Source: Minisyncoccota bacterium
Lineage (GTDB): Bacteria > Patescibacteriota > Minisyncoccia > Phycocordibacterales > XYD1-FULL-46-19
Assembly (NCBI GenBank): GCA_040879645.1
Contig: JBBDJY010000006.1
Location: 94,240 to 158,239 of the forward strand
Reading direction: 5' to 3'
DNA length: 64,000 nucleotides
In this document: positions 3,926-61,255 of the stretch, one piece after another
How positions within the stretch are numbered: position 1 is the stretch's first letter
How the letters are laid out: every line of letters begins with the position of its first letter
Made by a program: the position numbers and the translations under genes
The notes under the pieces: generated by a model
Seen by the model: the letters and a program-made list of their open reading frames with translations, nothing else
Told to the model about the DNA's origin: nothing
Databases searched by the model: none

Positions 3926-3926
3926 A

Positions 3927-3965
3927 AAAACCGCCCGGCCGGAAAAACGGCTTGGGCGGTTGGCC
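3927..3965. terminator. Hairpin terminator between convergent genes, used mainly by the minus-strand RlpA-like gene.
   Basis: The hairpin ccgcccggccggaaaaacggcttgggcgg has a T-run on the minus strand. Confidence 0.55.
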
Positions 3966-3978
3966 ATCGTCAAGCTGA

Positions 3979-4522: not shown

Positions 4523-6940
4523 ATGACAAATGATGAGCAATTTATCTATTGGTTTGACCAACTGGATAACAATGATGTGGCGCGAGTTGGCGGGAAGAAT
4601 GCTTCTTTGGGCGAAATGTACCAAAAATTGGTGTCTCAAGGAATTAATTTGCCCAATGGTTTCGCCATTACCGCCGGCGCCTATTTTTATTTTTTAGAGC
4701 AAGCCGGTTTGAAGGATAAAATCAAAGAAATTTTGAGCGATTTAAATACGGCCGATATTGATAATTTAATGGAACGGGGCAAGGAAGTTCGCAAGTTGAT
4801 TTTACAGGCCGAATTACCAGCTGATTTGAGGGAGCAAATTTTTGAGGCTTATCGCGATCTGGAAAATGCCTACAATAAAAAAGATGTTGATGTTGCCGTC
4901 CGTTCTTCGGCGACAGCTGAAGATTTGCCGGATGCATCTTTTGCCGGCCAGCAAGACACTTATCTCAACGTTTCCGGCGAAGATGATTTACTGTCGGCGG
5001 TTAAGCATTGTATGGCCTCGCTTTTTACCAATCGGGCCATTTCCTATCGTCAGGACAAGGGCTTTGATCATCTGTCTATCGGTCTATCGGTCGGCGTGCA
5101 GAAAATGGTTCGAACCGACAAGGGCTCATCGGGCGTGATGTTTAGTATTGATACCGAAAGCGGTTTTCAAGATGCCGTTTTGGTTAACTCTTCTTGGGGG
5201 CTGGGTGAGAATGTGGTCCAAGGTAAAGTGACGCCGGATGAATTTTTAGTTTTTGAACCGACCTTAATGGCCGGCTTTGCGCCGATTGTTTATCGCCGTA
5301 AGGGTACGAAGAAGATTAAAATGATTTACGCCGCCGGTGGTGAGCGGACCAAAGATGTGGCGACGACGAAGAAAGAACAAGCAGCTTGGTCTTTAACTGA
5401 TGACGAAATTTTACAATTGGCCCGCTGGGCAATTCAGATTGAACGGCATTACCATCGGCCGATGGATATGGAGTGGGGCAAAGATGGCGAAACCGGCCAA
5501 TTATTTATTCTTCAGGCTCGACCGGAAACCATTCACGCCACCAAAGCGGTGACGGTTTTGGAAGAGTATAAATTGGAAGAAAGAGGTAAAGTTTTGGCCA
5601 CCGGCGCGGCGGTCGGGGCGAAAATCTCTTCCGGCCGGGCGCGAATTATCCAAAGTGTTAAAGAAATCAATAAATTTGAAGCCGGCGAAATTTTAATTAC
5701 CGATATGACTGATCCGGATTGGGAACCGATAATGAAAATCGCCGCCGGGATTATTACTAATAAAGGTGGGCGGACTTGCCACGCGGCCATTGTCTCACGC
5801 GAATTGGGGATTCCTTGTATTGTCGGTACCGGTGATGCTACTGATAAAATAACCGATGGCCAAGAAGTAACCTTGTCTTGCGCCGAGGGTGATGTTGGCC
5901 GAGTCTATGAAGGTAAAGTCGCTTTTACTCGGATTGATACCGATTTGACCGGCCTGGAAACACCGGAAACCAAAATTATGATGAATATCGGCCAGCCGGA
6001 TATCGCTTTCCGATCATCATTTATTCCCAATAGCGGTGTCGGTTTGGCCCGAGAAGAATTCATCATTATCAATCAAGTTAAAATCCACCCCTTGGCCTTG
6101 CTCCATTATGACAACTTAAAAGATACCAAAGCCAAAAAAGAAATTACCGCTTTGACTGACGGTTATGACGACAAGGGACAATATTTTGTTGATCGGTTGG
6201 CGGAAGGGGTTGGCCAGATTGCCGCCGCTTTTTATCCGAAAGATGTCATTTTGCGTTTGTCGGACTTTAAGTCCAATGAATATGCTAACTTAATCGGTGG
6301 GGCGGAATTTGAACCGACCGAATCCAATCCGATGATCGGCTGGCGTGGGGCTTCGCGTTATTATGCCGAGGAATATAAACAGGCCTTTTTATTGGAATGC
6401 CGAGCGATTAAAAAAGTCCGTGACGAAATGGGTTTGGTTAATACCAAGGTGATGGTACCGTTTTGCCGGACGCCGGAAGAAGGCCGGAAAGTTATCGGCG
6501 TCATGGCTGAAGGGGGATTAGTCCAAGGTGAAAATGGCTTGGAAATTTATATGATGTGCGAGATTCCATCCAATGTGATTTTAGCCGATGAATTTTGTGA
6601 TATTTTTGACGGCCTATCCATCGGTTCCAATGACCTGACTCAGTTGATTTTGGGCGTTGATCGTGATTCGTCTTTAGTCGCTCATATTTATGATGAGCGC
6701 AATGAGGCGGTCAAGCGGATGATTAGTCAAGTAATTAAATCGGCTAAAGCCAAGAATAAAAAAATCGGCATTTGTGGTCAGGCGCCGTCTGATTTTCCCG
6801 ACTTTGCCCAATTTTTGGTTCAGGCCGGGATTGATAGCATCTCCTTAAATCCCGATACGGTAGTCAAAACCACCTTGGCGATTTTGGAAGAAGAAAAAAC
6901 TTTGCGTTTGGCCGAAGATGGAAGTGACGACGAAAATTAA
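4523..6940 (+). CDS. ppsA: Phosphoenolpyruvate synthase (pyruvate, water dikinase).
   Basis: 805 aa, with the phosphohistidine region GGRTCHAAIVSRELGIPCIVG and a PEP-utilising C-terminal domain. Confidence 0.9.
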   Translation: MTNDEQFIYWFDQLDNNDVARVGGKNASLGEMYQKLVSQGINLPNGFAITAGAYFYFLEQAGLKDKIKEILSDLNTADIDNLMERGKEVRKLILQAELPADLREQIFEAYRDLENAYNKKDVDVAVRSSATAEDLPDASFAGQQDTYLNVSGEDDLLSAVKHCMASLFTNRAISYRQDKGFDHLSIGLSVGVQKMVRTDKGSSGVMFSIDTESGFQDAVLVNSSWGLGENVVQGKVTPDEFLVFEPTLMAGFAPIVYRRKGTKKIKMIYAAGGERTKDVATTKKEQAAWSLTDDEILQLARWAIQIERHYHRPMDMEWGKDGETGQLFILQARPETIHATKAVTVLEEYKLEERGKVLATGAAVGAKISSGRARIIQSVKEINKFEAGEILITDMTDPDWEPIMKIAAGIITNKGGRTCHAAIVSRELGIPCIVGTGDATDKITDGQEVTLSCAEGDVGRVYEGKVAFTRIDTDLTGLETPETKIMMNIGQPDIAFRSSFIPNSGVGLAREEFIIINQVKIHPLALLHYDNLKDTKAKKEITALTDGYDDKGQYFVDRLAEGVGQIAAAFYPKDVILRLSDFKSNEYANLIGGAEFEPTESNPMIGWRGASRYYAEEYKQAFLLECRAIKKVRDEMGLVNTKVMVPFCRTPEEGRKVIGVMAEGGLVQGENGLEIYMMCEIPSNVILADEFCDIFDGLSIGSNDLTQLILGVDRDSSLVAHIYDERNEAVKRMISQVIKSAKAKNKKIGICGQAPSDFPDFAQFLVQAGIDSISLNPDTVVKTTLAILEEEKTLRLAEDGSDDEN

Positions 6941-42293: not shown

Positions 42294-44078
42294 TTATTGA
42301 TGCAAACCGATTTGCAATTCGTAAAGCTGACGATATTTTCCCCCAGCTAGTTTCATTAATTCTTCATGACTTCCCCGCTCGGTAATGCGGCCCTCATCAA
42401 AAACCAAGATCAAATCGGCTTTGCGGACGGTGGAAATCCGGTGAGCGATAATAAAAGTCGTCCGATCCTTCATTAACTTATTCAATGACTTTTGAATAAT
42501 TTCTTCCGAGCGAGCGTCCAGGGCGGAAGTCGGCTCGTCAAGAATAAGGATTTTTGGTCGACGCAAAACCGCTCGGGCGATGGCCACCCTTTGTTTTTGA
42601 CCGACCGAGAGCTTAACTCCCCTTTCGCCGACCAATTGTTTCCATTTTTTCGGGAATTTTTCGATAAAAGTTAAGGCATGGGCCTCTTTAGCCGATTGTT
42701 CAATTTCAGCAAAAGAGGCATTTGGATTGCCATAAGCAATGTTACTTTTAATCGTATCGTTAAACAAAGTTACTTCTTGGGGGACAATACCCAAATGCGA
42801 TCGCAAAATTTTAAGCGGTAGTCGTTTTATATTATGACCATCAATTAAAACCTGACCTTTTTGGGCAAAGTAATAGCCGGACAAAAGATCAATCAAAGTG
42901 CTTTTGCCCACACCCGATTCCCCGACCAGCGCCACCACTTGGCCGGCTTGAACGGAAAAAGATATGCCTTCCAAAACCGGCTTGCCGGCTTCATAGCGAA
43001 AAAAGACATTCTTAAATTCTACATCTCCACGAATATCGTTAATTTTAAGAGCATTTTTTGGTTGATAAGTTTCCGAACGGGTATTTAAAATTTTTTCTAC
43101 GGCCGAGATGTCTAAAATGCCGGTCTGAATCATTCGCCACATCTGCATCAAACTGGTAAAAGGGGCAAAGAGCATCGCCAAATAACTATTGAAGGCAATC
43201 AATTCACCAATGGTCATACTGCCGGCCAAAACTAAACGAATAGACCAAGCAAAAACAATGACCTGCAAAACAATAACGACTAGACCCCGAACCAAGTCTA
43301 AGGACTGCCAAATTTTGTCCATAACAAACCAATGAGGAAAAATATTTTGCACGAAGCGTTTGTTAATCTTTTTTTGTTCGGTATCTTCCGTTACCGCTTG
43401 CTTGACAGTTTGGGCATTATTGATGACATCGTAAGTATCACCATAAGATTGCCCCCAACCCTTAATCAATTTTTTCTGCCAATCAGCACTGTCGCGAATA
43501 AAGAGCCAAGCGATAGAAACATAAAAGAGAACCATTCCGGTGGCGATTAAAGCCAAAATCGGATTAATGCTGATCAAAAAAGAGATAGCGACAAATATTG
43601 TCAAAAATTGCGGGCCCAAACTACCAAGAACGCGGTCACTGATCAATTCAAAACCACCGCCGGCATTGGAAATTTTAGAATGAACTTCGCCGATCTTGCG
43701 CTTTTTGTGAAAAGACAGAGGTAATTCAAGCAACTTGGCATAGCTCTTACTCTGATAGTCAAAACGGGCGTGGAAAGAAATAACTGAACGCAATAAGGTC
43801 AAGCGATATTCAATGGCCATAACCACCAATTGGATGATGACTAAAATAAGGATAAAGACGACATAAGTCGGAATAGCCCGACCGGTGATATTGATCGTCT
43901 CGGGGGTAATGATAGTGTCAAATAACCGACCGGTGATATAGGGTACGGCCCCGTTGCCAATCGCCGAAATAATACCAAATATCAAAACTAAAATTGCCGA
44001 ACGCCGGTGTTGCGCCAAAAAGTCTATGATGACGGCCGTTGCTGTCCGCCAATGGCTAAATTTTACTTTACTGGCCAT
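42294..44078 (-). CDS. ABC transporter, fused permease/ATPase (exporter type, MsbA-like).
   Basis: Six transmembrane helices followed by a nucleotide-binding domain with GESGVGKSTL, LSVGQKQRVAIARA and ILILDEPTSALD. Confidence 0.85.
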   Translation of the reverse strand: MASKVKFSHWRTATAVIIDFLAQHRRSAILVLIFGIISAIGNGAVPYITGRLFDTIITPETINITGRAIPTYVVFILILVIIQLVVMAIEYRLTLLRSVISFHARFDYQSKSYAKLLELPLSFHKKRKIGEVHSKISNAGGGFELISDRVLGSLGPQFLTIFVAISFLISINPILALIATGMVLFYVSIAWLFIRDSADWQKKLIKGWGQSYGDTYDVINNAQTVKQAVTEDTEQKKINKRFVQNIFPHWFVMDKIWQSLDLVRGLVVIVLQVIVFAWSIRLVLAGSMTIGELIAFNSYLAMLFAPFTSLMQMWRMIQTGILDISAVEKILNTRSETYQPKNALKINDIRGDVEFKNVFFRYEAGKPVLEGISFSVQAGQVVALVGESGVGKSTLIDLLSGYYFAQKGQVLIDGHNIKRLPLKILRSHLGIVPQEVTLFNDTIKSNIAYGNPNASFAEIEQSAKEAHALTFIEKFPKKWKQLVGERGVKLSVGQKQRVAIARAVLRRPKILILDEPTSALDARSEEIIQKSLNKLMKDRTTFIIAHRISTVRKADLILVFDEGRITERGSHEELMKLAGGKYRQLYELQIGLHQ

Positions 44079-47258: not shown

Positions 47259-47322
47259 CAGATTCACCTCCTTTCGAAGACCAAGTTTTCTCCGGAATCT
47301 GCTCCGGAAGATTATCTACCCG
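47259..47322 (-). promoter_or_regulatory. Conserved 5' leader cassette, copy A: a -10-like TAGATAAT, a 7-bp hairpin, then AAAACTTGGTCTTCGAAAGGAGGTGA.
   Basis: Shared with the cassettes at 51393-51465 and 61068-61135. Confidence 0.6.
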
Positions 47323-47366
47323 AAGTGTGCTCTGGTGTCGATTTATTGTCAATGGGTAGATAAATT

Positions 47367-48149
47367 TCATTTTATTAAATCATTCCAGAAACTAAGGCGA
47401 TTCTCTTCATAACCATTTTTCCACGAAAGGGGAATAATAAAATCTTTCTCCCATTCCCGATAATCGCCGAAAAAAGTTTTTGCAAATAGGTCTTGATAGT
47501 GCTTCATCTTCTCCTCAAGATTGGAGCTTTGGATATATTTTTGAAAAATTGAGAGAAATTCCGGATCATTTTGCTCAAAATATCTTACGGCCATCTTCTC
47601 ACCCCGCCATGGGATATCGCGGAAAGCGAAGTAGGCAGTAGTAAGTTCCATCACACTGTAAAGTAGACGGAACTCCAGGGCTTTATGGTAGAGCGAATCA
47701 GGGGCCTGATAATAACGAGAATTGGCGATAAAGTTATAATTTATTTTAAGCCAAAAATTTGTTTTCTCGGTTTTCAGAATATTTTGAGAAAGAGGGTTTT
47801 GAACGATCTTGTTTCTAAACATCGTCAATAGGTTGTCGGGATCATATTCAATCTTCCCTTTCATTAACCACTCGGCAAACATTCCCTCAAAATCATTCGC
47901 GGAGACTTCTTGCTTGGTCTGTAATTTATGGATGAAATCAACGTCAAAGAAAAAAATATCAGCAAACCGACCCTCAACCGTGGTATAAACAGACTTGAGA
48001 TCTTCATCATTTTTGTCCAACAAAACAATCAGATCAATGTCGCTTGAAGGATTAAGTTGCGAGGCGGTGGTGCCGGTAGTAAATATACCTCTTACTCGCG
48101 ATGAGGATTTTAATTTCTCCACTAATTTTGTCAGTGATGGATATTTCAT
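47367..48149 (-). CDS. Pol-beta-fold nucleotidyltransferase with a C-terminal helical domain (aminoglycoside/lincosamide nucleotidyltransferase-like).
   Basis: GIFTTGTTASQLNPSSDIDLIVLL nucleotidyltransferase motif, 260 aa. Confidence 0.55.
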   Translation of the reverse strand: MKYPSLTKLVEKLKSSSRVRGIFTTGTTASQLNPSSDIDLIVLLDKNDEDLKSVYTTVEGRFADIFFFDVDFIHKLQTKQEVSANDFEGMFAEWLMKGKIEYDPDNLLTMFRNKIVQNPLSQNILKTEKTNFWLKINYNFIANSRYYQAPDSLYHKALEFRLLYSVMELTTAYFAFRDIPWRGEKMAVRYFEQNDPEFLSIFQKYIQSSNLEEKMKHYQDLFAKTFFGDYREWEKDFIIPLSWKNGYEENRLSFWNDLIK

Positions 48150-48716: not shown

Positions 48717-50402
48717 TCAGGCGTTGTTTTTAGGCACGTTTTTAGGTTTGTTCGTAAAGGCGGAATAATCAGCCACGCGAGTCAGTGACCCTTCGGCCAA
48801 GATGTAAGTGGAGTCAAGTTTAGCCCGCTCGAGAAAGTAGCGGTCATGTGAGACAAGAATGACCGTTCCGGTGTAAGTTGACAGGGTCTTTTCCAAGGCA
48901 AAAAGGGCAGCCAAGTCCAGGTGATTGGTCGGTTCATCAAGAATTAATGTATTCACCGACCGAGCGGAGAAGATGGCCAGAAGCAGGCGAGCTCGCTCGC
49001 CGGGACTTAGAGTCCCAACCAATTGCTTGACGCGGCTTTTATCAAAGCCAAACTTGGCCAGTTTGGCATAGGACTCTTGGCGACCCAATTTCGCTTGCTT
49101 CATCACACACTCAAGTAATGACAAATCTCGAGGCAAAGTTTCGTGTTCTTGCATCAAATTACCAACTTTAACGCCGGAACCGAGCTTGACCTCGCCGGCC
49201 AGCGGTGGCAGTTTGCCGGTAATTGTCTTGAGTAGAGTTGACTTGCCCGAACCGTTCAAACCAATGATTCCCAGACGATTGCCGTAGGAAATGTCCAAAG
49301 ATAACGGACCAACACGAAAGCCATCAGGGTAACCGGCAACCACGTCACTCAAAGACAAATGGCGCCGACCGGGGCCGGTTTTTGCCTCAAGCGGAATGGC
49401 AAAATCATCGGACTCAAACGGCTTTTCAATTTTCTCCATCTGGCCAATCCGCTTCTCAATCACTTTGGCGGCCCGGGCCGATTGTCCGGCCCGTTCACGC
49501 TTGAAACCCTTGAGCAGCTTGTCTCCATCGCTCCCCTGCCAGTGTGACCCTTTTTCTGATGATTGGCGTTTTTTCCTAGCGGTTTCGGTTAGGCGCTTAA
49601 CCTCTTTTTGCTGGAGGGTGTATTCGGTCTCTTGCCTGGCATTTTCTTTGGCCAATCTGGCCAAATAATCGCTGTAGGTACCACCAGAGACAATCAGGGT
49701 TTGCTGGCGAGAGTCTAGCCGGAAAATCTTTTTGGTCGTCCGGTCAAGAAATTGCCGATCATGAGAGACGACAATGCAAGTCGCCGAAATTTGCCGGATG
49801 AATTCCTCAAGCCAAATGAGAGCTGGTAAATCAAGATTATTGGTTGGTTCGTCAAGTAGAAGTAAATCAACCCCCCGGAGAAGAACTCCGGCCAAGGCCA
49901 CTTTGCTCTTCTGTCCGCTACTCAAGGCCGTCAACGGCTTATCAATATCGTCCTCGGTTAAACCAAATCCGGAAATGATTGCCTTCAACCTGAAGGTAAA
50001 AGTATAACCATCTAAACGCAAGTACTCTTCGTGTAGCTGATTATACTTTTGGGCCTGATCGGGTTGGTGAAGATCTGGCGACAAGTTCTCCAGTTCCTTT
50101 TCAATCTTGTCGATGCCGAGTAAAGCTCGAAGATGCTCGCCGACCGTTTCCTCTCCGGTCAAGCTCGTGTCTTGGGGCAAATAGCCGAGGCGAAGATCTT
50201 TCGCCAGCTTAATTTCACCACCATCAAGTTCTTCCAGACCGGCAATGATTTTAAGCAAAGTGGTCTTGCCGGACCCATTGTCTCCGACTAGGGCCACCTT
50301 GTCCCCTTCTTCCACCAAGAAAGAAACATCAGCCAACAAAGTCAGTGAGCCGTAGTTCTTGTGGATGTTTTTAGCTTGAATCATGCTCATATCTCCTTCC
50401 AC
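48717..50402 (-). CDS. ABC-F family ATPase (two nucleotide-binding domains, no transmembrane domain; EttA/Uup or ARE type).
   Basis: GDNGSGKTT + LSGGQKSKVALAG, then GLNGSGKST + LSPGERARL, with a charged linker; 561 aa. Confidence 0.85.
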   Translation of the reverse strand: MEGDMSMIQAKNIHKNYGSLTLLADVSFLVEEGDKVALVGDNGSGKTTLLKIIAGLEELDGGEIKLAKDLRLGYLPQDTSLTGEETVGEHLRALLGIDKIEKELENLSPDLHQPDQAQKYNQLHEEYLRLDGYTFTFRLKAIISGFGLTEDDIDKPLTALSSGQKSKVALAGVLLRGVDLLLLDEPTNNLDLPALIWLEEFIRQISATCIVVSHDRQFLDRTTKKIFRLDSRQQTLIVSGGTYSDYLARLAKENARQETEYTLQQKEVKRLTETARKKRQSSEKGSHWQGSDGDKLLKGFKRERAGQSARAAKVIEKRIGQMEKIEKPFESDDFAIPLEAKTGPGRRHLSLSDVVAGYPDGFRVGPLSLDISYGNRLGIIGLNGSGKSTLLKTITGKLPPLAGEVKLGSGVKVGNLMQEHETLPRDLSLLECVMKQAKLGRQESYAKLAKFGFDKSRVKQLVGTLSPGERARLLLAIFSARSVNTLILDEPTNHLDLAALFALEKTLSTYTGTVILVSHDRYFLERAKLDSTYILAEGSLTRVADYSAFTNKPKNVPKNNA

Positions 50403-51031
50403 TTAACCGCAATAAGATTATTATCTTCTTTCCAAGGCTTAGACATTGCTTTGATAAAAGTTTTTCGACCAACTTTCCGATTTTTAATTGGTGGCAATCC
50501 CGGATCATGGAAAGTAATATTATTATCTTCTATTGCCGTGATTAGAACCAAATGACTGGCATATCCTTTCTTTCTTTCCAAAACGTAAGGGTTAATTGAT
50601 ATCATAACCAAAAAGCCGTCATAGAAATACCTCTCAATATCACTGATAGAAATTTTTTTATTTATTAATTTAATTAAGGGATTCTTGATCAATTTCCGGG
50701 CTTGTATCTGTTCATTATCTAAATCAGAATATTTTTCTTGAACTTCAAAAACCTCTTTGCTCCAAATTTGGGCTAAATATTTTTTTCCTTGGCGAACAAA
50801 CTTTTTATAGTCGAGATTTTCAATATTAACCACCTCAAATCCCAGATTGGCTAAATATAGTAATCCTTGACTCTGCCAAGTCCATTGTTTCGGCTTATGA
50901 CCAATCAGGGGATCTAATATGTGATAGGGATAATTTTTATTCGGCAAATAATATTTTAAAACCATCCGCCAGCAAGCTGGCAAGCAACGAGTGTCATCTT
51001 TAGTATTTTTGTAAAAAGGAATATTAAGCAT
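50387..51031 (-). CDS. Standalone peptidase C39-like (papain-fold, bacteriocin-processing type) domain protein. The start is probably MLNIPFY; the listed ORF runs to 51076 through a terminator.
   Basis: DTRCLPACWRMVLKYY (catalytic Cys motif) and SHLVLITAIEDNNITFHDPG (His motif). Confidence 0.5.
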   Translation of the reverse strand: MLNIPFYKNTKDDTRCLPACWRMVLKYYLPNKNYPYHILDPLIGHKPKQWTWQSQGLLYLANLGFEVVNIENLDYKKFVRQGKKYLAQIWSKEVFEVQEKYSDLDNEQIQARKLIKNPLIKLINKKISISDIERYFYDGFLVMISINPYVLERKKGYASHLVLITAIEDNNITFHDPGLPPIKNRKVGRKTFIKAMSKPWKEDNNLIAVKWKEI

Positions 51032-51063
51032 AATTTTTATTAGGATAACACATAAATAAAATA

Positions 51064-51095
51064 GGCGGCAGGTCATGACCTGCCGCCAAGTGTCT
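51064..51095 (-). terminator. Rho-independent terminator after the Gly-rich micro-ORF.
   Basis: ggcggcaggtcatgacctgccgcc plus a T-rich run on the minus strand. Confidence 0.75.
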
Positions 51096-51112
51096 GACAG
51101 GGATTACTTCTT

Positions 51113-51181
51113 CCTGCCACCACCACCTCCGCCGCAACCACCACCGTTGTGATTACCGCCGTTGCCGGACATACTAACACC
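51113..51181 (-). CDS. 22-aa Gly-rich, Cys-containing micro-ORF, MSGNGGNHNGGGCGGGGGGRKK, with a strong Shine-Dalgarno. An in-frame 28-aa form starts at MRGGVS.
   Basis: GAGAGGAGGTGTTAGT ATG. Terminator immediately downstream. It is co-transcribed with the 61-aa ORF from the leader cassette. Confidence 0.35.
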
Positions 51182-51206
51182 TCCTCTCATATGGATTTTT
51201 TGCCTG

Positions 51207-51392
51207 CTACTTCTCAAGTGGCAAACGAATGCCCAAGGGTGAAAAGGAAGGATAACTAGTATTATATCTCTTCCTCCTATCCTTACTCCTCCTCCGCTCA
51301 GGGATTTTTGGGTCAGGATAGTTGAACCAAGGATTTTGTTGGCTTGAGGTTGAGTCAGAGGAAAATCCTGGCACTAGTTCTTCCGGGATCAT
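51207..51392 (-). CDS. 61-aa hypothetical peptide MIPEELVPGFSSDSTSSQQNPWFNYPDPKIPERRRSKDRRKRYNTSYPSFSPLGIRLPLEK.
   Basis: The ATG lies 9 nt after the cassette's AGGAGGTGA. The listed ORF starts at a GTG in that Shine-Dalgarno. Confidence 0.4.
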   Translation of the reverse strand: MIPEELVPGFSSDSTSSQQNPWFNYPDPKIPERRRSKDRRKRYNTSYPSFSPLGIRLPLEK

Positions 51393-51465
51393 AATGATGT
51401 TCTCACCTCCTTTCAAAGATCAGTTCTTCCCGGAACCCATTTTCCGGGAAATCTAATATCAGTCT
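51393..51465 (-). promoter_or_regulatory. Conserved 5' leader cassette, copy B: TATTAGAT, a 9-bp hairpin TTCCCGGAA/TTCCGGGAA, then ...CTTTGAAAGGAGGTGA.
   Basis: Seen directly; compare copies A and C. Confidence 0.6.
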
Positions 51466-51476
51466 AACCCGATGTC

Positions 51477-51500
51477 TTTTGTTGGCAATAGCCGACAAAC
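51477..51500. promoter_or_regulatory. 20-bp imperfect palindrome TTGTTGGCAATAGCCGACAA (operator-like), copy B.
   Basis: Identical core at 59810-59829 and 61149-61168. Confidence 0.5.
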
Positions 51501-51592
51501 TGAAATAAAAATCAAGCCAAAATCCCCTTTATTTAAAATGTATTTTCTCCTCCGCAAAAAATTTCTCTGATTCTGTCGGCCGGTGACAACAC

Positions 51593-53269
51593 TTACTCTC
51601 CTGCTTGCTTTATTTCCTCTCGATTAGCCGAGGCGGCATCAGGTAATTCAAGGGTAAAAGTGGAGCCCTGGTCCTTGCCGGGCGAATTGGCGATAATTTG
51701 TCCTTGATGGGCTTCAATGATTTGTTTGGCGACAAACATTCCCAGACCGGTACCTTTGACATTTATCTTCCCCTCATCATCAGCCCGAACAAATTTTTGA
51801 AACAGTTTTTCAATTTCCTCCGCTTCCAAACCGACACCGGTGTCGGTGACATCAATCCTCACCTTTCCATCACCGGACTTAACCGCTACCTTTACCGAAC
51901 CGGCCGGCGTGTACTTAATCGCATTGTCGATAACATTGGAAATTACCTGACCGATTTTACCACTGTCGCCATAAACCAAGTACTCACCCTTGTCAGCCGT
52001 AAAGGATAATTTGATTTTCTGATTCTTGGCTGTCGCTTCGTATTCTTTAAGAACTTGTTCGGTTAAGTTCTTAAGATCAAATTCAGTCAATTCATATTTC
52101 ATCTTGCCCAATTCAATTCGCGTGATATTAAGAAAATCTTCAATCACCCGGACCAATTTCTGGCTGGATTCAAATACAATATCAACCTTTTCCTTTATTT
52201 TTTTCGGTACTTTTCCAAATGACCCTTCCAAAATCATTGATGAATACCCCTTGATGGCGGTCAACGGTGCCCGCAACTGATGCGAAGCGATAGAAACAAA
52301 TTCGGTCTTTTGTTTGTCCAATTCTTTCAATTTTTCATTAGCCCCAAACAAAGCTTTATTGACCTCTCTTAATTCTCCAGCCAATTTTTCAATGTGCTCT
52401 CTTTGTTTTATTTCCCGACGAACACTACGAATTAAATAAATGCCGAATATAAGTATTGATACAAAAATTAACGAATCCACCGCTCTTTCTATGATAGTGT
52501 TTGATCTAAATATTTGAGAAAAAATTATAATCCACAAAACTATTATAACTGCCTCAGTCACTATTATTTTAATATTAAAAAGTTCATATTTAGTAATTGC
52601 ATAGGCGGTTATCCCCATAAAAATTAGTGCATAAATAGAAATCAGGGGTAAAAATATTCCATTTCCGTAGATTATTATTGGAAGTAAGATTGTCCCAATA
52701 AGCAATAATAGCATCAGTGATATTCCGATTAAAATTAAAATGGATTGATATTGTCTGACTCCACTGTACTCTATTGTTTTTTTAAATAGAAAATATATGG
52801 CCAAGACACTAAACAAGGTAGATATAATCGCAAATGGAATTATTCCTAATCCAGCAATGGGATTTCCGCTATTATCTGTGGTATGGGTAAAGGCATAAGG
52901 AGATATATTTATAATTGCCATTACCGCAGTAAGAAGTAAAATTAAAACAAAATTACGTTGCGACATCATTATTTTATGACTTGGTATTGTATGGGCAAAT
53001 AGAAGGAACAAGGCGCTCATTAATGCCGCGAACATTATGCTAAGACGATGAAAGAAAATAGCTAATGATTCTATTTCTGGTAGTCCGGCTATATATCCTG
53101 ACCATAACCAAAACAATATAAAAATACTTAGCAATGAAAAAATTATATTGGTAGCACTTTTTTTATTACTGTAATAAATAGTAAAAATCAGTACGATTGA
53201 TCCTATCGACACTCCAGCAAGAAAAAATAACTCTAATTCACTTACTATATTAGAAAAAATTTCAATCAT
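51593..53269 (-). CDS. Sensor histidine kinase with a 7-transmembrane N-terminal domain; no response regulator is adjacent.
   Basis: HisKA region VSIASHQLRAPLTAIKGY, HATPase_c region DTGVGLEAEE...GTGLGMFVAKQII, 558 aa. Confidence 0.85.
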   Translation of the reverse strand: MIEIFSNIVSELELFFLAGVSIGSIVLIFTIYYSNKKSATNIIFSLLSIFILFWLWSGYIAGLPEIESLAIFFHRLSIMFAALMSALFLLFAHTIPSHKIMMSQRNFVLILLLTAVMAIINISPYAFTHTTDNSGNPIAGLGIIPFAIISTLFSVLAIYFLFKKTIEYSGVRQYQSILILIGISLMLLLLIGTILLPIIIYGNGIFLPLISIYALIFMGITAYAITKYELFNIKIIVTEAVIIVLWIIIFSQIFRSNTIIERAVDSLIFVSILIFGIYLIRSVRREIKQREHIEKLAGELREVNKALFGANEKLKELDKQKTEFVSIASHQLRAPLTAIKGYSSMILEGSFGKVPKKIKEKVDIVFESSQKLVRVIEDFLNITRIELGKMKYELTEFDLKNLTEQVLKEYEATAKNQKIKLSFTADKGEYLVYGDSGKIGQVISNVIDNAIKYTPAGSVKVAVKSGDGKVRIDVTDTGVGLEAEEIEKLFQKFVRADDEGKINVKGTGLGMFVAKQIIEAHQGQIIANSPGKDQGSTFTLELPDAASANREEIKQAGE

Positions 53270-54330
53270 CTGTAATTTATTTTAGGTAATAACTTTGTCG
53301 ATTTAGCTGAAGGCTCTCCGTCATATCCTATGCGCAGGATCGTTGTGATAATCCCATTTAATCTACAAATTGACTCTATCCCATGATAAGCCGTCTTAAT
53401 TTCATTATTGTCTTTTTCCGTAAATACCTGTGAAGCGGTTTTTTCTTCAACGGCTTGGTGAAAGAATAATAACCCACTGTTTAATTGTACTGACAAATTA
53501 TTTTTTGTTGCCGCTAACCAAATTGATTGGACTTGTCTCCCAACGTCAATAAAAGATTTACTATCTTTTAACTTAGCGCTAATAATACACAGCCCGGCAC
53601 AAGCGGAATGTGTCTCCTTATTTTCTGCGGCAATTTTTTTAGCGATGCCTAGTTTAAGCGCCAAAGACATAATTGGCCAATATTTAAGTAATCGCATCAA
53701 TAGTCTTTTGCCGAAGCTTAATTCCAGTGTATGGATTAATAGTCCCCCACCTCTTAACTTTTCTTCATTTTTATTCCAAACCAATTCTTTAAAAAAAAGT
53801 CTGTTTAAAAATTTATTTTCAAACATTATTCTTTCACCGACTGATAAATATTTAGCGATTTCGTCTATACTCGTTCGATTATAGATAAAATTAACATTTA
53901 CTTGATTATTAAAATTTATATATTTTTTTAAATCTGAAACAACGTTTTCCGTGATTGCCTCTTTGGCGTAAGGTTTTCGATTAGAGGCCCGCTTATGCAA
54001 ATAACTGTATAAAGGGCTTAATTTAACCGAGTCATCGTCTATTAACTCTATCGAAGCCGTTAATTTGGGCTCATTTTGATTAGGAAATATTTTTACAATA
54101 GCTTTTAAGTTGTGCTTGGTCGAAGCAATGGCAATATTTTCAATCAAGGCCCCATGAGCGATATAGGTTCCTCGATTTCGGACGTTTAGAACCGCGTGAT
54201 CTTTTTCCGGCTGAGCAAATATATTAATGGTGTTATCTTTTATTTCAAAGTACCAAGGCTGAGAATTTCCTCCCGATGGAGCATCGTAACTATCAGCCAG
54301 TATTTTTTCTATTATCACCTGATTAACCAT
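53266..54330 (-). CDS. Nitroreductase-family flavoprotein, enlarged (354 aa; tandem or SagB-like dehydrogenase type).
   Basis: PSGGNSQPWYF signature near the N-terminus. The length exceeds simple nitroreductases of about 200 aa. Confidence 0.6.
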   Translation of the reverse strand: MVNQVIIEKILADSYDAPSGGNSQPWYFEIKDNTINIFAQPEKDHAVLNVRNRGTYIAHGALIENIAIASTKHNLKAIVKIFPNQNEPKLTASIELIDDDSVKLSPLYSYLHKRASNRKPYAKEAITENVVSDLKKYINFNNQVNVNFIYNRTSIDEIAKYLSVGERIMFENKFLNRLFFKELVWNKNEEKLRGGGLLIHTLELSFGKRLLMRLLKYWPIMSLALKLGIAKKIAAENKETHSACAGLCIISAKLKDSKSFIDVGRQVQSIWLAATKNNLSVQLNSGLLFFHQAVEEKTASQVFTEKDNNEIKTAYHGIESICRLNGIITTILRIGYDGEPSAKSTKLLPKINYR

Positions 54331-54337
54331 AGTTTTA

Positions 54338-55378
54338 TTATATCAAATTTTCATTAAAACCACTCTCTTTAATCCCGGTCGCCTTTATTATTTTAGCCAC
54401 CCCTTTTTGCCAAGTGGCAATCGGGGTGATTTTAAGTCGAGGAATATCCGGCACTTGTTCATCAACCATATATCTAAATTCTCCGGCGGTCAGAAGAGAT
54501 CCAATTAGTAATCCTTCGGCGGTTAACAGGTTGGAAAATTTGGTTAAATCCTCGATGTTTTCTATCTTTTCAGTTTTCAGATAGTGTTGTAAAGTTTTTG
54601 TGGTTATTTGCCCGGAGACATACAACTTTTTTGTAAGCTCTATCAATTTGTCCATATCTAACCAGTAGGTTGGGAATTTATAGGAATAAAAAGATCGGTC
54701 AACATTTAATTTTTTATTGGGAGGCAGGCCTAAAGTTTCTTCGGCGGCAATAAAAGGCATGGCGGTTACTTTCCCATTTTTATTCAGGGCAATCACTTTA
54801 TTTTGGATATCACCCCTGACGATAGCGGTAACATATTCAAAGGTATTGATGTCTTCAGAATAATCAGCTATAAATTGCGCCTGCATCAGGGCGAAACATA
54901 TAGCGGTAAATTTATGTTTAGTTGAGTTTTTTTTGTTTATAAAACACGGATGAACCCCACACATTCTGGAGTCAGAATACACTTTAGACCATAGATTCTT
55001 ATTTGACCAATTCATTTTGTCGCACAGTAACTTAGGTACCGGCTGATTTTTATATTTATACAATTCTATTTCTCCAATCCCGGTAAATAATCCATCCCCG
55101 GGAACCATGCGCACACTCAACCATTCTTCGGTTTCTTTACCGTACCGGGCCCGGGCAAGATAGATAACAGCCTTATCGTCATATTTATCAAATAATTCCC
55201 GTGCCCCATATTTTTTGTATGAACCTCTGGCCAAGGCCAGGATTTTATACAGGCTTTTATCTAACCACTTTTTGTTATTTAAGTCTTTGGCACGGTAAAT
55301 CTCAAATTCTGCTTCAGCTGTAGAATAAACAGCTAAGGGTTTGGGTAATTTAAGCAGTGTCTCTGATATATTATTCAT
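54338..55378 (-). CDS. Hypothetical protein (346 aa) with a possible acyltransferase-like fold (very weak LuxI/FeeM/FemX-like impression).
   Basis: No clear motif was found. It is tightly packed inside the operon. Confidence 0.4.
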   Translation of the reverse strand: MNNISETLLKLPKPLAVYSTAEAEFEIYRAKDLNNKKWLDKSLYKILALARGSYKKYGARELFDKYDDKAVIYLARARYGKETEEWLSVRMVPGDGLFTGIGEIELYKYKNQPVPKLLCDKMNWSNKNLWSKVYSDSRMCGVHPCFINKKNSTKHKFTAICFALMQAQFIADYSEDINTFEYVTAIVRGDIQNKVIALNKNGKVTAMPFIAAEETLGLPPNKKLNVDRSFYSYKFPTYWLDMDKLIELTKKLYVSGQITTKTLQHYLKTEKIENIEDLTKFSNLLTAEGLLIGSLLTAGEFRYMVDEQVPDIPRLKITPIATWQKGVAKIIKATGIKESGFNENLI

Positions 55379-55383
55379 TGTAA

Positions 55384-56505
55384 TTAAATGTCCAATAGAT
55401 TGTTTAATTGCTTAAGGGTTTTTTGCCTTTGTTTTATGGCGTCTTTTTTTTGAAAATCAGAATCTAAAGTTGAAATCGGACTAAAGACATATTTGCCAGA
55501 CTTAAGATGATCAGTTGTTAAAATCATTTTGACAGTCATTGCTAATATTGATCCGGACATTACCGCCGCAATCCCTAATTGAGGTACATGGTTAATCGTT
55601 TGACCAATTGCTATGAGTGACTTTTGTAGATCTTCTTCCATAAATTCTGTTCCGATAATTTTAGAAGAAAGTTTACTCCAGGCTTTCGGGTCTTTATGGC
55701 GCAATAATGCCAGCCCGATATTTTTTGGTAAACTTACTCGGCCGTGGAAAATCGGGTATTTAGGGTCTCTATCATATCTTTCGATGTCTAAGATAATACC
55801 ATTGCCATTATCGGTCGCCATTAAAACGGGGATTTTCTTTTGTCTTGCTTTTTGCCTTATCCTCACTTTCATCATCAAATTATCCATCTCATCAATTAAG
55901 ATGTCGACGGCCGATAAAAAATTATCAATATTTTTCTCAGTTACTCCTTGGCGGAATATCTTTATGTCAGCGTAGGGGTTATTTTGATAGATATATTCGG
56001 CTGTTCTTTCTGCTTTATTCTGGCCAATATCGAGAAAATCAAAATGGAGCCGGTTTAGGTTGGTGCCAGAAATCTTGTCTCCATCCGCGATTTTCAAGTG
56101 TTTGGCAATACCGGACATCGAAAGAACCATGGCGGCATGACTACCAACGCTTAATCCGGCAATGGCAATTGTCGCATTATATAATTTATCTTGAGCAATA
56201 CTTGATACGACTTCTTTATTGCGAGCGGTTCTTAATTCCTGATGAAGGTCTTCCGGTAAATAGGAGACTAAAGTTTTGTTCCAAGGAAAATAAAACCAAG
56301 TTCCAGGCTTTGTTTGTTTTTTATTGTTTGGAAGATTTTTTATGAATTGTTTAAATTTGGGATCGTTTTTCGATTTTACTTTCTTTAGCGGATTTCTGAC
56401 TTGATAAAGCTCATAGATCAAATCGTCATATTTATCAATTTTTTTAGATATTTCATGAGAATTCTCAAATTTTTTTAGATTTAAAACTCGAATTGGTTTT
56501 TTCAT
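55384..56505 (-). CDS. ThiF/MoeB/E1-like adenylyltransferase with an N-terminal extension of about 105 aa.
   Basis: Rossmann/E1 signature IAIAGLSVGSHAAMVL...IADGDKISGTNLNRL, 373 aa. Confidence 0.7.
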   Translation of the reverse strand: MKKPIRVLNLKKFENSHEISKKIDKYDDLIYELYQVRNPLKKVKSKNDPKFKQFIKNLPNNKKQTKPGTWFYFPWNKTLVSYLPEDLHQELRTARNKEVVSSIAQDKLYNATIAIAGLSVGSHAAMVLSMSGIAKHLKIADGDKISGTNLNRLHFDFLDIGQNKAERTAEYIYQNNPYADIKIFRQGVTEKNIDNFLSAVDILIDEMDNLMMKVRIRQKARQKKIPVLMATDNGNGIILDIERYDRDPKYPIFHGRVSLPKNIGLALLRHKDPKAWSKLSSKIIGTEFMEEDLQKSLIAIGQTINHVPQLGIAAVMSGSILAMTVKMILTTDHLKSGKYVFSPISTLDSDFQKKDAIKQRQKTLKQLNNLLDI

Positions 56506-56515
56506 GGATCCTTAA

Positions 56516-57625
56516 CTACTTTCTTAAATCGGCAATATATTTGTTTTTATAAGAACTTGTTTTGGATGCATCTATGTTTTTTTGGAAAATAATTTTTTTA
56601 TTTTTTAAAAAATTGAGAGTTTCGTTTATTTCGGCTTCTTTCTTCTTTACTTTATTATCAATAAAAATTTCAACCAGATCTCTATCATTGTTGGTTTTAA
56701 TATAAACCATAAATTGGTCGGTAAATTTAAGTAACGAATCTATAATTTTTGTTTTAGATGTCAGAATACCCTGGACTTTAATTAAATCATCACTCCGGTT
56801 TATTATTTCAAATTCCTTCAACGATCCATTCCGGTTATATTTTACATTATCCAAAATATCCCCCGTTTTATATCGGATTATCGGTGTGGCCAGATTATAT
56901 AAATCAGTGACAACTAAATGTTTTAAGTTTTTAATTTCTATCGCTTCAACATATATACCATTGCTTATGACGGTTATTTTTTGAGGATCATCTTTTTTTG
57001 ATACCCCAATCGCCGGGCACTCGGTTAGGCCAAAGTGATTAATGACTTCAATCCCATACCTTTTAAATGTATCGGTATAGCTGTCTAAAAGTCTCTCGCC
57101 GGCGACAATTATCTTTTTGGGGAAATATCTTGATTTTTTTTCTTGTGCCAACAAGTTAAGTAAACTGATGGCATAACTGGGGACCGAAAGCCAAACATTT
57201 GGCCTGATCTTTTTTATTGCTTCTATCATCTTATCTTTAGGATAAGTGTTAGGGGCGCCTAGCGGTATTACCGAAATGTCCATTTTTTGGCAGGCCTTTT
57301 CGTACATACTCCCCGGCACATAATTACCATAGGCAAAAAGGTTTAAGACGATATCGTCTTTTGCTACTCCTGATTTTTTAAGCGATTTAATGGCCCGACT
57401 GATAAAGTGATGAACCGCTTGTTTTGAGTAAAAAACATATAAAGGGAGCCCGGTTGACCCGCTGGTAACCCGTAACTCTAAAAAAGATTTAGGCGTCTTA
57501 AATTTTTTAATTACGTTTTTATTACTGACTGGTACCTCGCTCCAGGTTTTTATTTTTGAGCCCCGATGAAAATTACGTAATATGTCTTGTTGTCGTATTT
57601 TTAGCGATGATTTGTTGTTTTTCAT
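56516..57625 (-). CDS. Adenylate-forming enzyme of the PaaK / coenzyme F390 synthetase / CapK-like family (ANL superfamily).
   Basis: VTSGSTGLPLYVFYS (A3-like), HFGLTECP (A5-like) and YKTGDIL (A8-like). Confidence 0.65.
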   Translation of the reverse strand: MKNNKSSLKIRQQDILRNFHRGSKIKTWSEVPVSNKNVIKKFKTPKSFLELRVTSGSTGLPLYVFYSKQAVHHFISRAIKSLKKSGVAKDDIVLNLFAYGNYVPGSMYEKACQKMDISVIPLGAPNTYPKDKMIEAIKKIRPNVWLSVPSYAISLLNLLAQEKKSRYFPKKIIVAGERLLDSYTDTFKRYGIEVINHFGLTECPAIGVSKKDDPQKITVISNGIYVEAIEIKNLKHLVVTDLYNLATPIIRYKTGDILDNVKYNRNGSLKEFEIINRSDDLIKVQGILTSKTKIIDSLLKFTDQFMVYIKTNNDRDLVEIFIDNKVKKKEAEINETLNFLKNKKIIFQKNIDASKTSSYKNKYIADLRK

Positions 57626-57636
57626 AGAGGAAGAAT

Positions 57637-58044
57637 TTAAACTACATAAAATTTTTCTTCAACCTCGGCCCTTATCTCGCCTCTTATTTTATATTTTCGA
57701 GAATAATTTGTTTTTGAGATAAGAATTCTTTTTAAATTTTTATTTTGAAAAATTTTACCAAATGGTTCATTGGGATTATGAGTGGCCCAATCATTAACAA
57801 ATTTGTTTTTTTTAAGTTTGTTAGTGGCTTGGCATAGGATTTTATCATTTTTTAAAAAGGCAATTTCTCGAAAGATAAAATCTTCGGTTATTTTTTGTTT
57901 TAATAGTTTGAACTCGACATCAGGAATATTTTTTTCAATATATAAAGTTGTTGATAAGGTAATATCATTTAATAATTCGAAAAACCACGGTGCCTCTTTT
58001 TTATTCATTCCAGCAAAAAAGCGATGCAAAAAAATAGCTTTCAT
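57637..58044 (-). CDS. Hypothetical 135-aa protein.
   Basis: ORF in the operon. It is preceded by a 19-aa micro-ORF (58063-58122, MEKYLIKKSYLDMTLLGEK) with an AAAGGTGG Shine-Dalgarno. Confidence 0.4.
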   Translation of the reverse strand: MKAIFLHRFFAGMNKKEAPWFFELLNDITLSTTLYIEKNIPDVEFKLLKQKITEDFIFREIAFLKNDKILCQATNKLKKNKFVNDWATHNPNEPFGKIFQNKNLKRILISKTNYSRKYKIRGEIRAEVEEKFYVV

Positions 58045-59520: not shown

Positions 59521-59545
59521 AAAACGCCTGTTTAGGCGAGGATTT
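59521..59545 (-). terminator. Small hairpin plus T-run after the GreA-C-like gene.
   Basis: cgcctaaacaggcg followed by ttttttt on the minus strand. Confidence 0.5.
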
Positions 59546-59783
59546 TTTCAACTTTGATTACCACTTGGCGATCTCGAATCACTCCTGGTTTTTCTTCACC
59601 CGCCTGCATTTCAAGCAGAAGTGAAGCCAAGGGAGCATCGCTCGCAATTTTACCTTCGGCGATATCGGTTTGGCCAAGGCCGACAATGGTCCAAGTTTGG
59701 GACTGACCGTTAACCGTGACGGCTATTCGGTTGCCAATCTGGACTTTTGGCGCTTTTTGTTCATGGATTTCTTTGGTTTCCAT
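59532..59783 (-). CDS. GreA/GreB C-terminal (FKBP-like) domain-only protein of 84 aa. The start was moved to METKEIH; the listed TTG start lies inside the operator palindrome.
   Basis: RIAVTVNGQSQTWTIVG..ADIAEGKIASDAPLASLLLEMQAGEE resembles the GreA C-terminal domain. Confidence 0.45.
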   Translation of the reverse strand: METKEIHEQKAPKVQIGNRIAVTVNGQSQTWTIVGLGQTDIAEGKIASDAPLASLLLEMQAGEEKPGVIRDRQVVIKVEKILA

Positions 59784-59807
59784 TAAGGTGATAATAGGCC
59801 CCCGGCC

Positions 59808-59915
59808 AATTGTTGGCAATAGCCGACAAAATGACTTTGATTTTAGTCAAAAATATCCTTGGTTTGCAATCTTTGCCGGCTAAGAGAGAGAATTTCACCG
59901 GTTTTGTTGGGGCTG
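59808..59915. repeat. Repeated regulatory module of about 110 bp, copy D. It contains the palindrome TTGTTGGCAATAGCCGACAA and a TTGACT box.
   Basis: 64 nt are identical to 61147-61209, followed by a similar tail (..ccgrttttgttgggg..). Confidence 0.8.
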
Positions 59916-60587: not shown

Positions 60588-61067
60588 TCAGGTGCAATTG
60601 ACAGTGCCATTGCAATCGTAGTCAGGGGAGCAATCTAACCCACAGCCAACTCGCCCAGATATAGCTCCTTCCTTCGCCCATCCCCAATTGTCAGAGATGA
60701 GAACAGGATCAAGATGTTTCTTGACAGCCTTAATGGTCCGAAGGATACAATCACGGTCTGATACCGAGTCACGTTCTGTCTTAGGAACGTGGTGAATGAA
60801 AACACCAAATTCCCTCTGACAAAATTCTGCGTAGTCTCGCGTGAATAAAATGAAAGAATGCCACCCCTCATCAATAATTGAAGGCGGGGCAATGCTCTCA
60901 TTTTCTTGCTGAGTCAGCCACAGAAATGTTAAGGTATCCCTGAACAATTCCTCGGCTTCTTCCATTGGAAGGCAGAGGTTCCGTGAAAGACGGCTCACTA
61001 CTCCATGGTTATCGTAGTGAAGAACGTCTTCAAGAGAAGCCTTGTTCTCTGTTTGTTGCAAAGTCAT
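60588..61067 (-). CDS. Hypothetical protein with a DUF1399/GRDP-like motif and a Cys-rich C-terminal tail. The start is the ATG after the cassette's Shine-Dalgarno.
   Basis: IIDEGWHSFILFTRDYAEFCQREFG fits a W-H...L....Y...C...[FY]-G pattern, recalled from memory. The tail reads GCGLDCSPDYDCNGTVNCT. Codon usage is more GC-rich than the neighbours. Confidence 0.5.
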   Translation of the reverse strand: MTLQQTENKASLEDVLHYDNHGVVSRLSRNLCLPMEEAEELFRDTLTFLWLTQQENESIAPPSIIDEGWHSFILFTRDYAEFCQREFGVFIHHVPKTERDSVSDRDCILRTIKAVKKHLDPVLISDNWGWAKEGAISGRVGCGLDCSPDYDCNGTVNCT

Positions 61068-61135
61068 ATAATCACCTCCTTTCAAAGACCAAGTTTTTCT
61101 TTGGACCTATTTCCAAAGAATCTAATATCACCTTA
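61068..61135 (-). promoter_or_regulatory. Conserved 5' leader cassette, copy C: TATTAGAT, a 7-bp hairpin CTTTGGA/TCCAAAG, then AAAAACTTGGTCTTTGAAAGGAGGTGA.
   Basis: Seen directly. Confidence 0.6.
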
Positions 61136-61146
61136 CTGAAAAAAAG

Positions 61147-61255
61147 AATTGTTGGCAATAGCCGACAAAATGACTTTGATTTTAGTCAAAAATATCCTTG
61201 GTTTGCAATATCTTTCGATTTCAGGTGGAAATTTTGCCGATTTTGTTGGGGAGAT
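61147..61255. repeat. Repeated regulatory module of about 110 bp, copy C (palindrome at 61149-61168), lying between divergent genes.
   Basis: See copy D. Confidence 0.8.

Follow-up and report, generated by a model that had tools for sequence, protein, structure and literature searches.

Bacteriocin precursors and precursors of ribosomally synthesised and post-translationally modified peptides (RiPPs) of the double-glycine type carry a leader of 15-30 aa with hydrophobic residues at positions -4, -7, -12 and -15, and in the architecture of the peptidase-containing ATP-binding cassette (ABC) transporters (PCATs) the C39 peptidase is the N-terminal domain of the bacteriocin exporter. Here we analyze a locus of an uncultured Candidatus Paceibacterota bacterium, a member of the candidate phyla radiation (CPR), located on a 64-kb stretch of DNA (the window hereafter), in which a Gly-rich micro-ORF (open reading frame) of 22 codons is followed by the gene for a C39-like peptidase. 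Like the double-glycine precursors, the peptide is encoded beside a C39 peptidase, and this holds in 15 of the 16 intact loci that we could assemble and for two peptidase subfamilies. It differs from them in having a conserved part of 12 aa instead of a long leader with spaced hydrophobic residues, and its peptidase is a 214-aa stand-alone ORF and not the N-terminal domain of a bacteriocin ABC exporter. Peptide and stand-alone C39-like peptidase constitute a conserved two-gene module that has not been described before. All elements of the locus lie on the minus strand, and the core of the module is arranged as follows:

51184-51178, minus strand: Shine-Dalgarno (SD) sequence GGAGGTG of the micro-ORF, 5 nt before its ATG
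51172-51104, minus strand: the 22-aa micro-ORF, MSGNGGNHNGGGCGGGGGGRKK, with its ATG at 51172
51087-51054, minus strand: intrinsic terminator, GGCGGCAGGTCATGACCTGCCGCC followed by TATTTTATTT, between the peptide and peptidase genes
51031-50387, minus strand: C39-like peptidase of 214 aa, a free-standing ORF

A sequence-only reading of this DNA had proposed a promoter cassette with a 61-aa ORF, a 22-aa ORF equipped with its own SD, a clean terminator and a free-standing C39-like ORF, and all of these were found on the minus strand. No other ORF of the window combines a preceding SD with a Gly content of 30% or more. The stem of the terminator has 10 bp with eight GC pairs (51087-51064) and leads into the T-run TATTTTATTT; the ATG of the peptidase gene follows after 33 nt, with no evident SD. 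An Rfam scan of the whole window returned no known RNA family. Longer versions of the micro-ORF starting at 51190 or 51217 were rejected, because conservation starts exactly at MSGNGG and the sequences upstream vary among loci. An antisense poly-Pro ORF (51075-51152, plus strand) was also rejected as a gene: its Pro-rich frame is interrupted by stops in 8 of 14 loci, offers no start codon inside the peptide-ORF region and leaves out those codons that are conserved most.

Homologues of the peptide were gathered along several routes. Peptidase-first, 28 genomic loci encoding relatives of the peptidase were fetched and scanned for Gly-rich ORFs; peptide-first, a degenerate DNA pattern for the peptide alone was run against metagenome contigs and gave nine complete ORFs in eight distinct loci. 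A protein search with concatenated peptides added seven more loci, all called with spurious N-terminal extensions, and six further peptidase homologues, selected blind to the peptide, contributed L045, L053 and others. The family totals 16 intact loci plus an interrupted one, with peptides of 16-29 aa that follow the formula M-S-G-N-G-G-N-H-(N/K/E/G)-G-(G/S)-(G/S)-X-Gly-run-(K/R-rich tail). The peptide matches no family of Pfam or NCBIfam. Its pattern has no match in viral contigs, and a phage origin was rejected on this ground.

Gly-rich mini-ORFs directly adjoin the peptidase gene in L005, L025, L003 and L006. The L005 peptide reads MSGNGGNHNGGGLGGGGGGKDGKGK, and its peptidase is 38% identical to that of the window; the L025 peptide begins with MSGNGGNHKGGGQ, the rest being masked. 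Since ORFs homologous to it recur in many further genomes beside homologues of the peptidase, the micro-ORF is no product of chance. Over the 19 codons shared by the window and L005, 11 changes are synonymous and a single one is non-synonymous (Cys to Leu), and the comparison with L045 gives 14 synonymous changes and one non-synonymous. Among the first 12 codons of 14 distinct DNA sequences, the third position varies in 11, the first position in three and the second in none, and pairwise codon differences among these sequences amount to 506 synonymous versus 61 non-synonymous, a count in which loci derived from the pattern are biased toward a synonymous result, whereas the peptidase-first pairs (L005, L045) are unbiased. 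The non-Gly residues S2, N4, N7 and H8 are conserved through synonymous changes, and the conserved N-terminal 12 aa, MSGNGGNHNGGG, are devoid of hydrophobic residues apart from Met1. At residue 13, Cys is confined to the window, L045 and the interrupted L046, and the 14 others have Q (the commonest), T, L, K or V. An SD precedes the homologous ORF in every locus, a hairpin with a T-run follows it in most (L031 shows no evident one, and the case of L035 is unclear), and several loci have their own TTGACA-17-TAnnnT promoter. Judged from these codon changes, the micro-ORF is a genuine gene under selection at the level of the peptide, and the synonymous pattern contradicts the possibility, raised in the sequence-only reading, that the DNA alone would be conserved.

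The literature searched on DUF3335, stand-alone C39 proteins, C39 together with glycine-rich peptides in Patescibacteria, RiPPs of Patescibacteria and polyglycine small proteins yielded no description of this module, and the peptides represent an undescribed family of Paceibacteria-type CPR bacteria. In the public protein collection they are present only as mis-started calls of 41-53 aa, or are missing: all public peptide calls (P0046-P0052) have spurious N-terminal extensions, and P0012, a peptidase call, extends too far and runs over the peptide ORF. Most gene callers presumably apply a floor of about 30 codons, and the peptide genes lie at or below it; the true ORFs being shorter than gene callers allow, the calls are extended at the N-terminus. 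The family is systematically mis-annotated or missed, and the module has therefore been invisible until now.

Concerning the linkage between the two genes, in the peptide-first scan a C39-like gene starts within about 170 nt downstream of the peptide in seven of the eight distinct metagenome loci. Five of these seven peptidases are of the same type as that of the window (type A), and two (L030 and L033) belong to a second type (type B), which is a short canonical C39 matching Pfam PF03412 at 41-43 bits; the two types are alignable only around the His-Asp region (hhalign probability 50%). In the reciprocal, peptidase-first test, 11 close homologues of type A (at least 42% identity) were considered, seven of which have an intact Gly-rich mini-ORF upstream and one an interrupted ORF. 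The order of the genes is reversed in L005, where peptidase, peptide and terminator succeed one another.

Several observations were made around the pair in other genomes. In L034 a single peptide gene is followed by two tandem type A paralogues (2653-3294 and 3375-4010). The ORF of L046 (76-141), identical in sequence to that of L047 from an independent assembly, has an in-frame TAG at codon 9 and reads MSGNGGNS, stop, GGGCGGGGGGKD, stop; it could be a pseudogene, encode a shortened product or be subject to read-through. In L003, L050, L006 and L051 the place upstream of the type A peptidase is taken by different mini-ORFs, which are likewise Gly-rich and cationic. They include a second conserved family, MAKGPSPHGKGSGGG(R/K)GG(N/H)GKPGKPG(K/H), in L003 (2517-2600) and L050 (426-509), also with His at position 8, as well as Gly-rich forms of 45-54 aa in L006 (5783-5920) and L051 (842-1006). 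In L002 a type A peptidase of 58% identity, which lacks a Gly-rich ORF, is preceded at 50 nt by the gene for a radical S-adenosylmethionine/SPASM enzyme (4779-5951), and no obvious precursor peptide was seen near the gene for this enzyme. NUDIX-like hydrolase genes adjoin type A homologues in L005, L008, L010, L023 and L002, an assignment confirmed by Pfam in L005 only and made by eye from motifs in the others. TrmB-family regulators flank the pair in four distinct loci, and none does in the window:

L030, 3644-4417: TrmB-family regulator
L032, 8417-9217: TrmB-family regulator
L032, 10569-10907: TrmB-family regulator
L034, 1464-2267: TrmB-family regulator
L035, 1514-2275: TrmB-family regulator

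The peptidase of the window is 100% identical to the protein with NCBI locus tag WDZ85_02125. It passes narrowly over the Pfam cutoffs (given in brackets) of PF11814 with 28.2 (25), PF13529 with 27.5 (24) and PF03412 with 25.0 (22), and no NCBIfam model matches it. The catalytic residues are C16, H160 and D176; the last two are invariant in 19 homologues, and C16 is near-invariant among them, being absent only from the N-terminally truncated P0045. A profile search against the PDB aligns the triad to the C/H/D of the ComA peptidase domain, with the same 16-residue spacing between His and Asp, and the Cys/His/Asp triad, whose integrity the sequence-only reading had left to be checked, is thus intact. 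A confident model obtained with AF2 (AlphaFold2) has a predicted local distance difference test score (pLDDT) of 94.5, and a helical insert of about 70 residues (residues ~72-140) lies between the Cys and His halves. In fold searches double-glycine proteases are closest, which led us to reject an assignment to a BtrH-like family, and staphopain is among the fold relatives. These results show that the protein has the catalytic residues and the fold of C39 peptidases. Inspection reveals neither a signal peptide nor a membrane segment in it, and the catalytic Cys is residue 16; as far as its sequence tells, the peptidase is cytoplasmic.

Upstream of the micro-ORF, the locus includes a promoter with a structured 5'-untranslated region (5'-UTR) and a further small ORF:

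51488-51461, minus strand: sigma-70-like promoter, TTGCCA-16-TAGACT, from a sequence scan
51450-51427, minus strand: 5'-UTR stem-loop, TTCCCGGAA/AATGGG/TTCCGGGAA, a perfect 9-bp stem read from the sequence
51410-51403, minus strand: SD GGAGGTGA of the 61-aa ORF, 10 nt upstream of it
51392-51207, minus strand: 61-aa ORF (MIPEELVPGFSSDST...), encoding a disordered, basic small protein

Copies of this cassette are found on the minus strand of the window at 51403-51510, 61064-61180, 59785-59912 and 47262-47380, and homologous cassettes stand ahead of equivalent genes in L032 (9315-9425) and L045 (1-108). Their consensus consists of TTGaCA, a spacer of 16-17 nt, TAnnnT, the hairpin and (A/G)TCTTTGAAAGGAGGTGA; the arrangement TTGaCA-16/17-TAnnnT is shared by four homologous cassettes, namely three of the window and that of L032, and the promoter of the L045 cassette is TCGACA-16-TATTTT. 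The stem of the hairpin is preserved by compensatory changes across five copies, with the variants TCTTTGGA/TCCAAAGA at 61.1 kb, TCTCTGGA/TCCAGAGA in L045 and TTTCCAAG/CTTGGAAA in L032, and the stem-loop probably stabilises the mRNA. Four small genes or gene pairs are driven by the cassette in the window: the 61-aa ORF with the peptide, orf165, an 83-aa protein with a GreA/GreB C-terminal domain (59532-59783, Pfam 36 bits) and orf130. The cassette looks like a lineage-typical combination of a strong promoter, a stabilising 5' hairpin and an SD, and is not specific to this locus. The peptide is probably strongly expressed.

The 61-aa ORF is outside the conserved module. Its sole homologue is a 67-aa ORF in the same position in L032/L036 (38% identity, E 0.001); the search of protein databases gave no homologue, and no family matched. 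L042 and L043 have no space for it, none is present in L037, L039 and L044, and in the closest relative, L045, expression of the peptide is driven by the cassette directly. The ORF may encode a genuine small protein specific to this lineage. A 165-aa protein encoded in the window (60588-61085, minus strand) behind the same cassette matches no family and has a Cys-rich C-terminus, GCGLDCSPDYDCNGTVNCT; homologues of it in L011 (4097-4396) and L018 (5357-5674), from a Saccharibacteria genome and another Patescibacteria genome, lie less than 2 kb from type A peptidase genes.

We consider that the locus is best explained by a real, translated peptide gene that forms a two-gene module with a peptidase cutting the peptide at Gly-Gly, and we give this explanation, taken as a whole, about an even chance of being right. 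The peptide would most likely be the dedicated substrate of a cytoplasmic Gly-Gly protease, and we infer cleavage, its site, and the identity and action of the product. In this scheme the peptide would be produced in excess from a unit with its own promoter, SD and terminator, and a smaller supply of peptidase would arise through terminator read-through; the Cys16/His160/Asp176 site would then cleave a Gly-Gly bond in the peptide. The best candidate for the cut is after the near-invariant G10-G11-G12 and before X13, the sole hypervariable residue, which would release the conserved N-terminal part of 12 residues and a short X-Gly6-Lys/Arg part. An invariant 12-mer ending in GGG, followed by a hypervariable residue, a Gly run and a basic tail, fits a cut after G12 by the GG|X analogy. 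The idea of a substrate, which the sequence-only reading had offered as a leaderless one, is plausible with a short leader, as peptide and peptidase are a conserved pair.

A number of observations weigh against this explanation. Known C39 enzymes grip an amphipathic hydrophobic leader, which is lacking in this peptide, and the peptide offers many possible Gly-Gly sites. The peptidase has Asn at -7 from the catalytic Cys (N9) in most members, whereas the usual oxyanion Gln sits at -6; from the alignment, Asn is the probable oxyanion residue in place of Gln, and not universally so, as the archaeal homologue in L021 has Gln at -6 and P0022 and P0033 have neither Gln nor Asn. Three of the 11 close type A homologues are without a Gly-rich mini-ORF, and so are 21 of 23 distant homologues from Saccharibacteria, Gammaproteobacteria, Binatia and archaea; with a Gly-rich ORF in only the remaining two, the pairing is a trait of a Paceibacteria-centred clade and not of the whole peptidase family. 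In L031 the peptide lies between an MMPL-like gene and a gene for a small membrane protein, with no peptidase on the 3.8-kb contig. Finally, adjacency is silent on direction: it is compatible with the peptide being a substrate, an inhibitor or a regulator.

One alternative is that the peptide has a cellular role of its own, for instance as a hydrophilin-like, a KGG/RGG-like nucleic-acid-binding or a metal-binding mini-protein, and is co-regulated with the peptidase but uncleaved. The first 12 residues are almost invariant though the peptidases are just 36-38% identical, which would suit binding to a conserved target, and the presence of different Gly/Lys/Arg-rich mini-ORFs at the same position (the MAKGPSPHGKGSGGG... 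family of L003 and L050, the 45-54-aa forms of L006 and L051), as well as an L031 peptide without peptidase, would be in line with such a role. However, the link spans two distantly related C39-like subfamilies and a swap of gene order, which would be difficult to account for unless the two are in a direct functional relation, and neither KGG nor any other family was matched; we regard a role independent of cleavage as unlikely.

The peptide might also act as a pseudo-substrate or inhibitor that keeps a cytoplasmic protease in check, on the model of the co-encoded staphostatin/staphopain pair. Peptide and peptidase are co-encoded and both cytoplasmic, the peptide would be made in excess from the strong cassette ahead of the terminator, and staphopain is one of the fold relatives mentioned above. 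Yet the known inhibitors of this kind are folded proteins, and a peptide of 16 aa made entirely of Gly and Asn is unlikely to withstand a Gly-Gly protease, making an inhibitor quite improbable.

A third alternative, to which we assign a comparably low probability, is that of a cis-acting leader or arrest peptide, where a ribosome on the Gly run would govern terminator read-through into the peptidase gene and into the gene downstream of it, which codes for an ABC-F protein:

48717-50402, minus strand: ABC-F ATPase, soluble and ribosome-associated (NCBIfam ribo_prot_ABC_F, 419.5 bits versus a cutoff of 380)

The ORF immediately precedes the peptidase gene in most loci, with the terminator 17-30 nt past the stop of the ORF, and in the window this ribosome-associated ABC-F is translationally coupled to the peptidase; according to the gene calls of a 16-kb stretch that includes the window locus and was also retrieved as L001, the ABC-F start overlaps the peptidase stop by 4 nt. 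However, the terminator is kept in both the minimum free energy and centroid folds with no competing antiterminator, the L005 peptide lies downstream of the peptidase with nothing after it, no peptidase follows the L031 peptide, and S2, N4, N7 and H8 are kept through synonymous changes. A transcription attenuator in particular was rejected, in view of the absence of antiterminator pairing and the reversed gene order of L005.

Concerning the other neighbouring genes, ABC-F genes are also found near the peptidase in L003 (3468-4916) and L038 (2185-2676). No membrane domain was found in the ABC-F protein of the window, which is part of the context and not an exporter; a link between ABC-F and the translation of a poly-Gly ORF is conceivable. 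An ABC exporter of 594 aa with membrane and ATPase domains is encoded 6 kb downstream of the peptidase (42294-44078, minus strand), and its 50%-identical orthologue in L050 (1224-3005) lies directly beside the peptidase gene in convergent orientation; this could reflect an export route or mere synteny. Upstream of the cassette lies an operon:

51593-58044, minus strand: genes for a PaaK-like ligase, a ThiF/E1-like protein, a LuxI/FeeM-like GNAT, a nitroreductase-like protein and a seven-transmembrane (7TM) histidine kinase

This operon is translationally coupled to the 7TM histidine kinase, and its ThiF-like and nitroreductase-like genes lie 2-5 kb upstream of the peptide. The 346-aa protein encoded between these two has the GNAT fold of acyl-homoserine lactone synthases and FeeM, the nitroreductase-like protein is of the Acg/Rv1355c type, and the upstream genes jointly match both halves of the Rv1355c family. 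In L030, the only other locus where ThiF and nitroreductase genes accompany the peptide, nitroreductase-like, ThiF and histidine kinase genes recur upstream of a peptide with Gln13, and in L032, L005 and L034 the ThiF and nitroreductase genes are missing. The operon looks like a small-molecule pathway that is possibly associated with the peptide, and it is not the machinery of a thiazole/oxazole-modified microcin (TOMM). Membership in a defence system was rejected as well, since PADLOC, which covers defence systems, returned just generic E1 matches for ThiF.

Two further ideas build on this operon. The 12-mer MSGNGGNHNGGG, freed with a Gly-Gly-Gly end, could serve as a minimal ribosomal tag or signal that is activated by ThiF or sensed by the 7TM histidine kinase, which we see as very unlikely; if true, it would represent a previously unknown peptide-based system of modification or signalling for host-dependent CPR bacteria. 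More narrowly, the trimmed C-terminal Gly-Gly-Gly might be adenylated by the E1-like ThiF for conjugation or modification, following a minimal ubiquitin-like or microcin-C-like logic. But in the other loci with long flanks no ThiF is encoded near the peptide, and the operon, with its ligase, GNAT and nitroreductase-like protein, looks devoted to small molecules, with no E2-like or JAB partner; the chances of adenylation by ThiF are slim indeed. A microcin-B17-like (TOMM) precursor, as imagined in the sequence-only reading, whose Cys and Ser would be heterocyclised by E1-like and dehydrogenase enzymes before trimming by the C39-like peptidase, is barely credible: it would account for the Gly-rich composition, for Cys13 in the window, L045 and L046 and for the occurrence of ThiF-like and nitroreductase-like genes in L030 and, 2-5 kb upstream, in the window, but the analogy breaks down on a Cys13 limited to a sub-clade, the 14 other loci having Q, T, L, K or V at residue 13, with Gln in L030 despite its ThiF and nitroreductase-like genes, on the absence of YcaO from the Pfam and NCBIfam profile matches of the cluster proteins (the 346-aa protein being a LuxI/FeeM-like GNAT), on a cluster that is missing from most peptide loci, including L032, L005 and L034, and on the lack of a long leader. 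Of the claim that two of the three TOMM enzyme types lie nearby, the presence of ThiF-like and nitroreductase-like genes stands, but these are of the Rv1355c/Acg types and not McbB/McbC.

Comparison with known systems places the module as follows. The peptidase resembles the DUF3335, Guanylate_cyc_2 (GUCD1-like) and Peptidase_C39_2 proteins in being a stand-alone soluble C39-like protein, and its best Pfam match is PF11814. An association of DUF3335/C39-like stand-alone proteins with GNAT domains has been noted (PMC10318531). In the window, a GNAT gene lies two genes downstream of the peptidase. No dedicated Gly-rich mini-peptide partner for DUF3335, Guanylate_cyc_2 or Peptidase_C39_2 proteins is reported in the literature searched. 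With respect to the peptide/protease pairs ComC-ComA, CtA-PCAT1 and LahA-LahT, the peptidase of the module is free-standing, cytoplasmic and not fused to an ABC exporter, its neighbour being a soluble ABC-F, and it carries the helical insert of about 70 residues; the peptide, of 16-29 aa and 55-65% Gly, is without an amphipathic hydrophobic leader.

Similarity to microcin C (the 7-aa MccA with the E1-like MccB) lies in an extremely short ribosomal gene with its own SD and in an E1-like gene nearby, in the window and L030. In the mcc operon of microcin C, a terminator follows the peptide gene, with read-through into the enzyme genes. In contrast to microcin C, the peptide has no C-terminal Asn, it is partnered by a protease, and linkage to a ThiF gene is not the rule. 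As for microcin B17 (McbA with McbBCD), the likeness consists of a Gly-rich ribosomal peptide with E1-like and flavoprotein-like genes near the window locus; unlike microcin B17 and other TOMMs or linear azol(in)e-containing peptides (LAPs), there is no YcaO and no 26-aa leader, the Cys and Ser of the core are not conserved, and the intervening enzyme is a LuxI/FeeM-like GNAT.

The module offers a simple and testable enzyme/substrate pair, a 22-mer and a 214-aa soluble protease, in Patescibacteria, where the functions of most genes are unknown. If cleavage takes place, C39-type proteases can recognise a leader of 12 residues with no hydrophobic residues, which would widen the rules for mining double-glycine peptides, and this would point to a novel Gly-rich peptide product, with a conserved target implied by how little the peptide varies among distant lineages. 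Set against these systems, the module is a variant of the double-glycine peptide/protease theme and not a microcin-B17-like antibiotic cluster.

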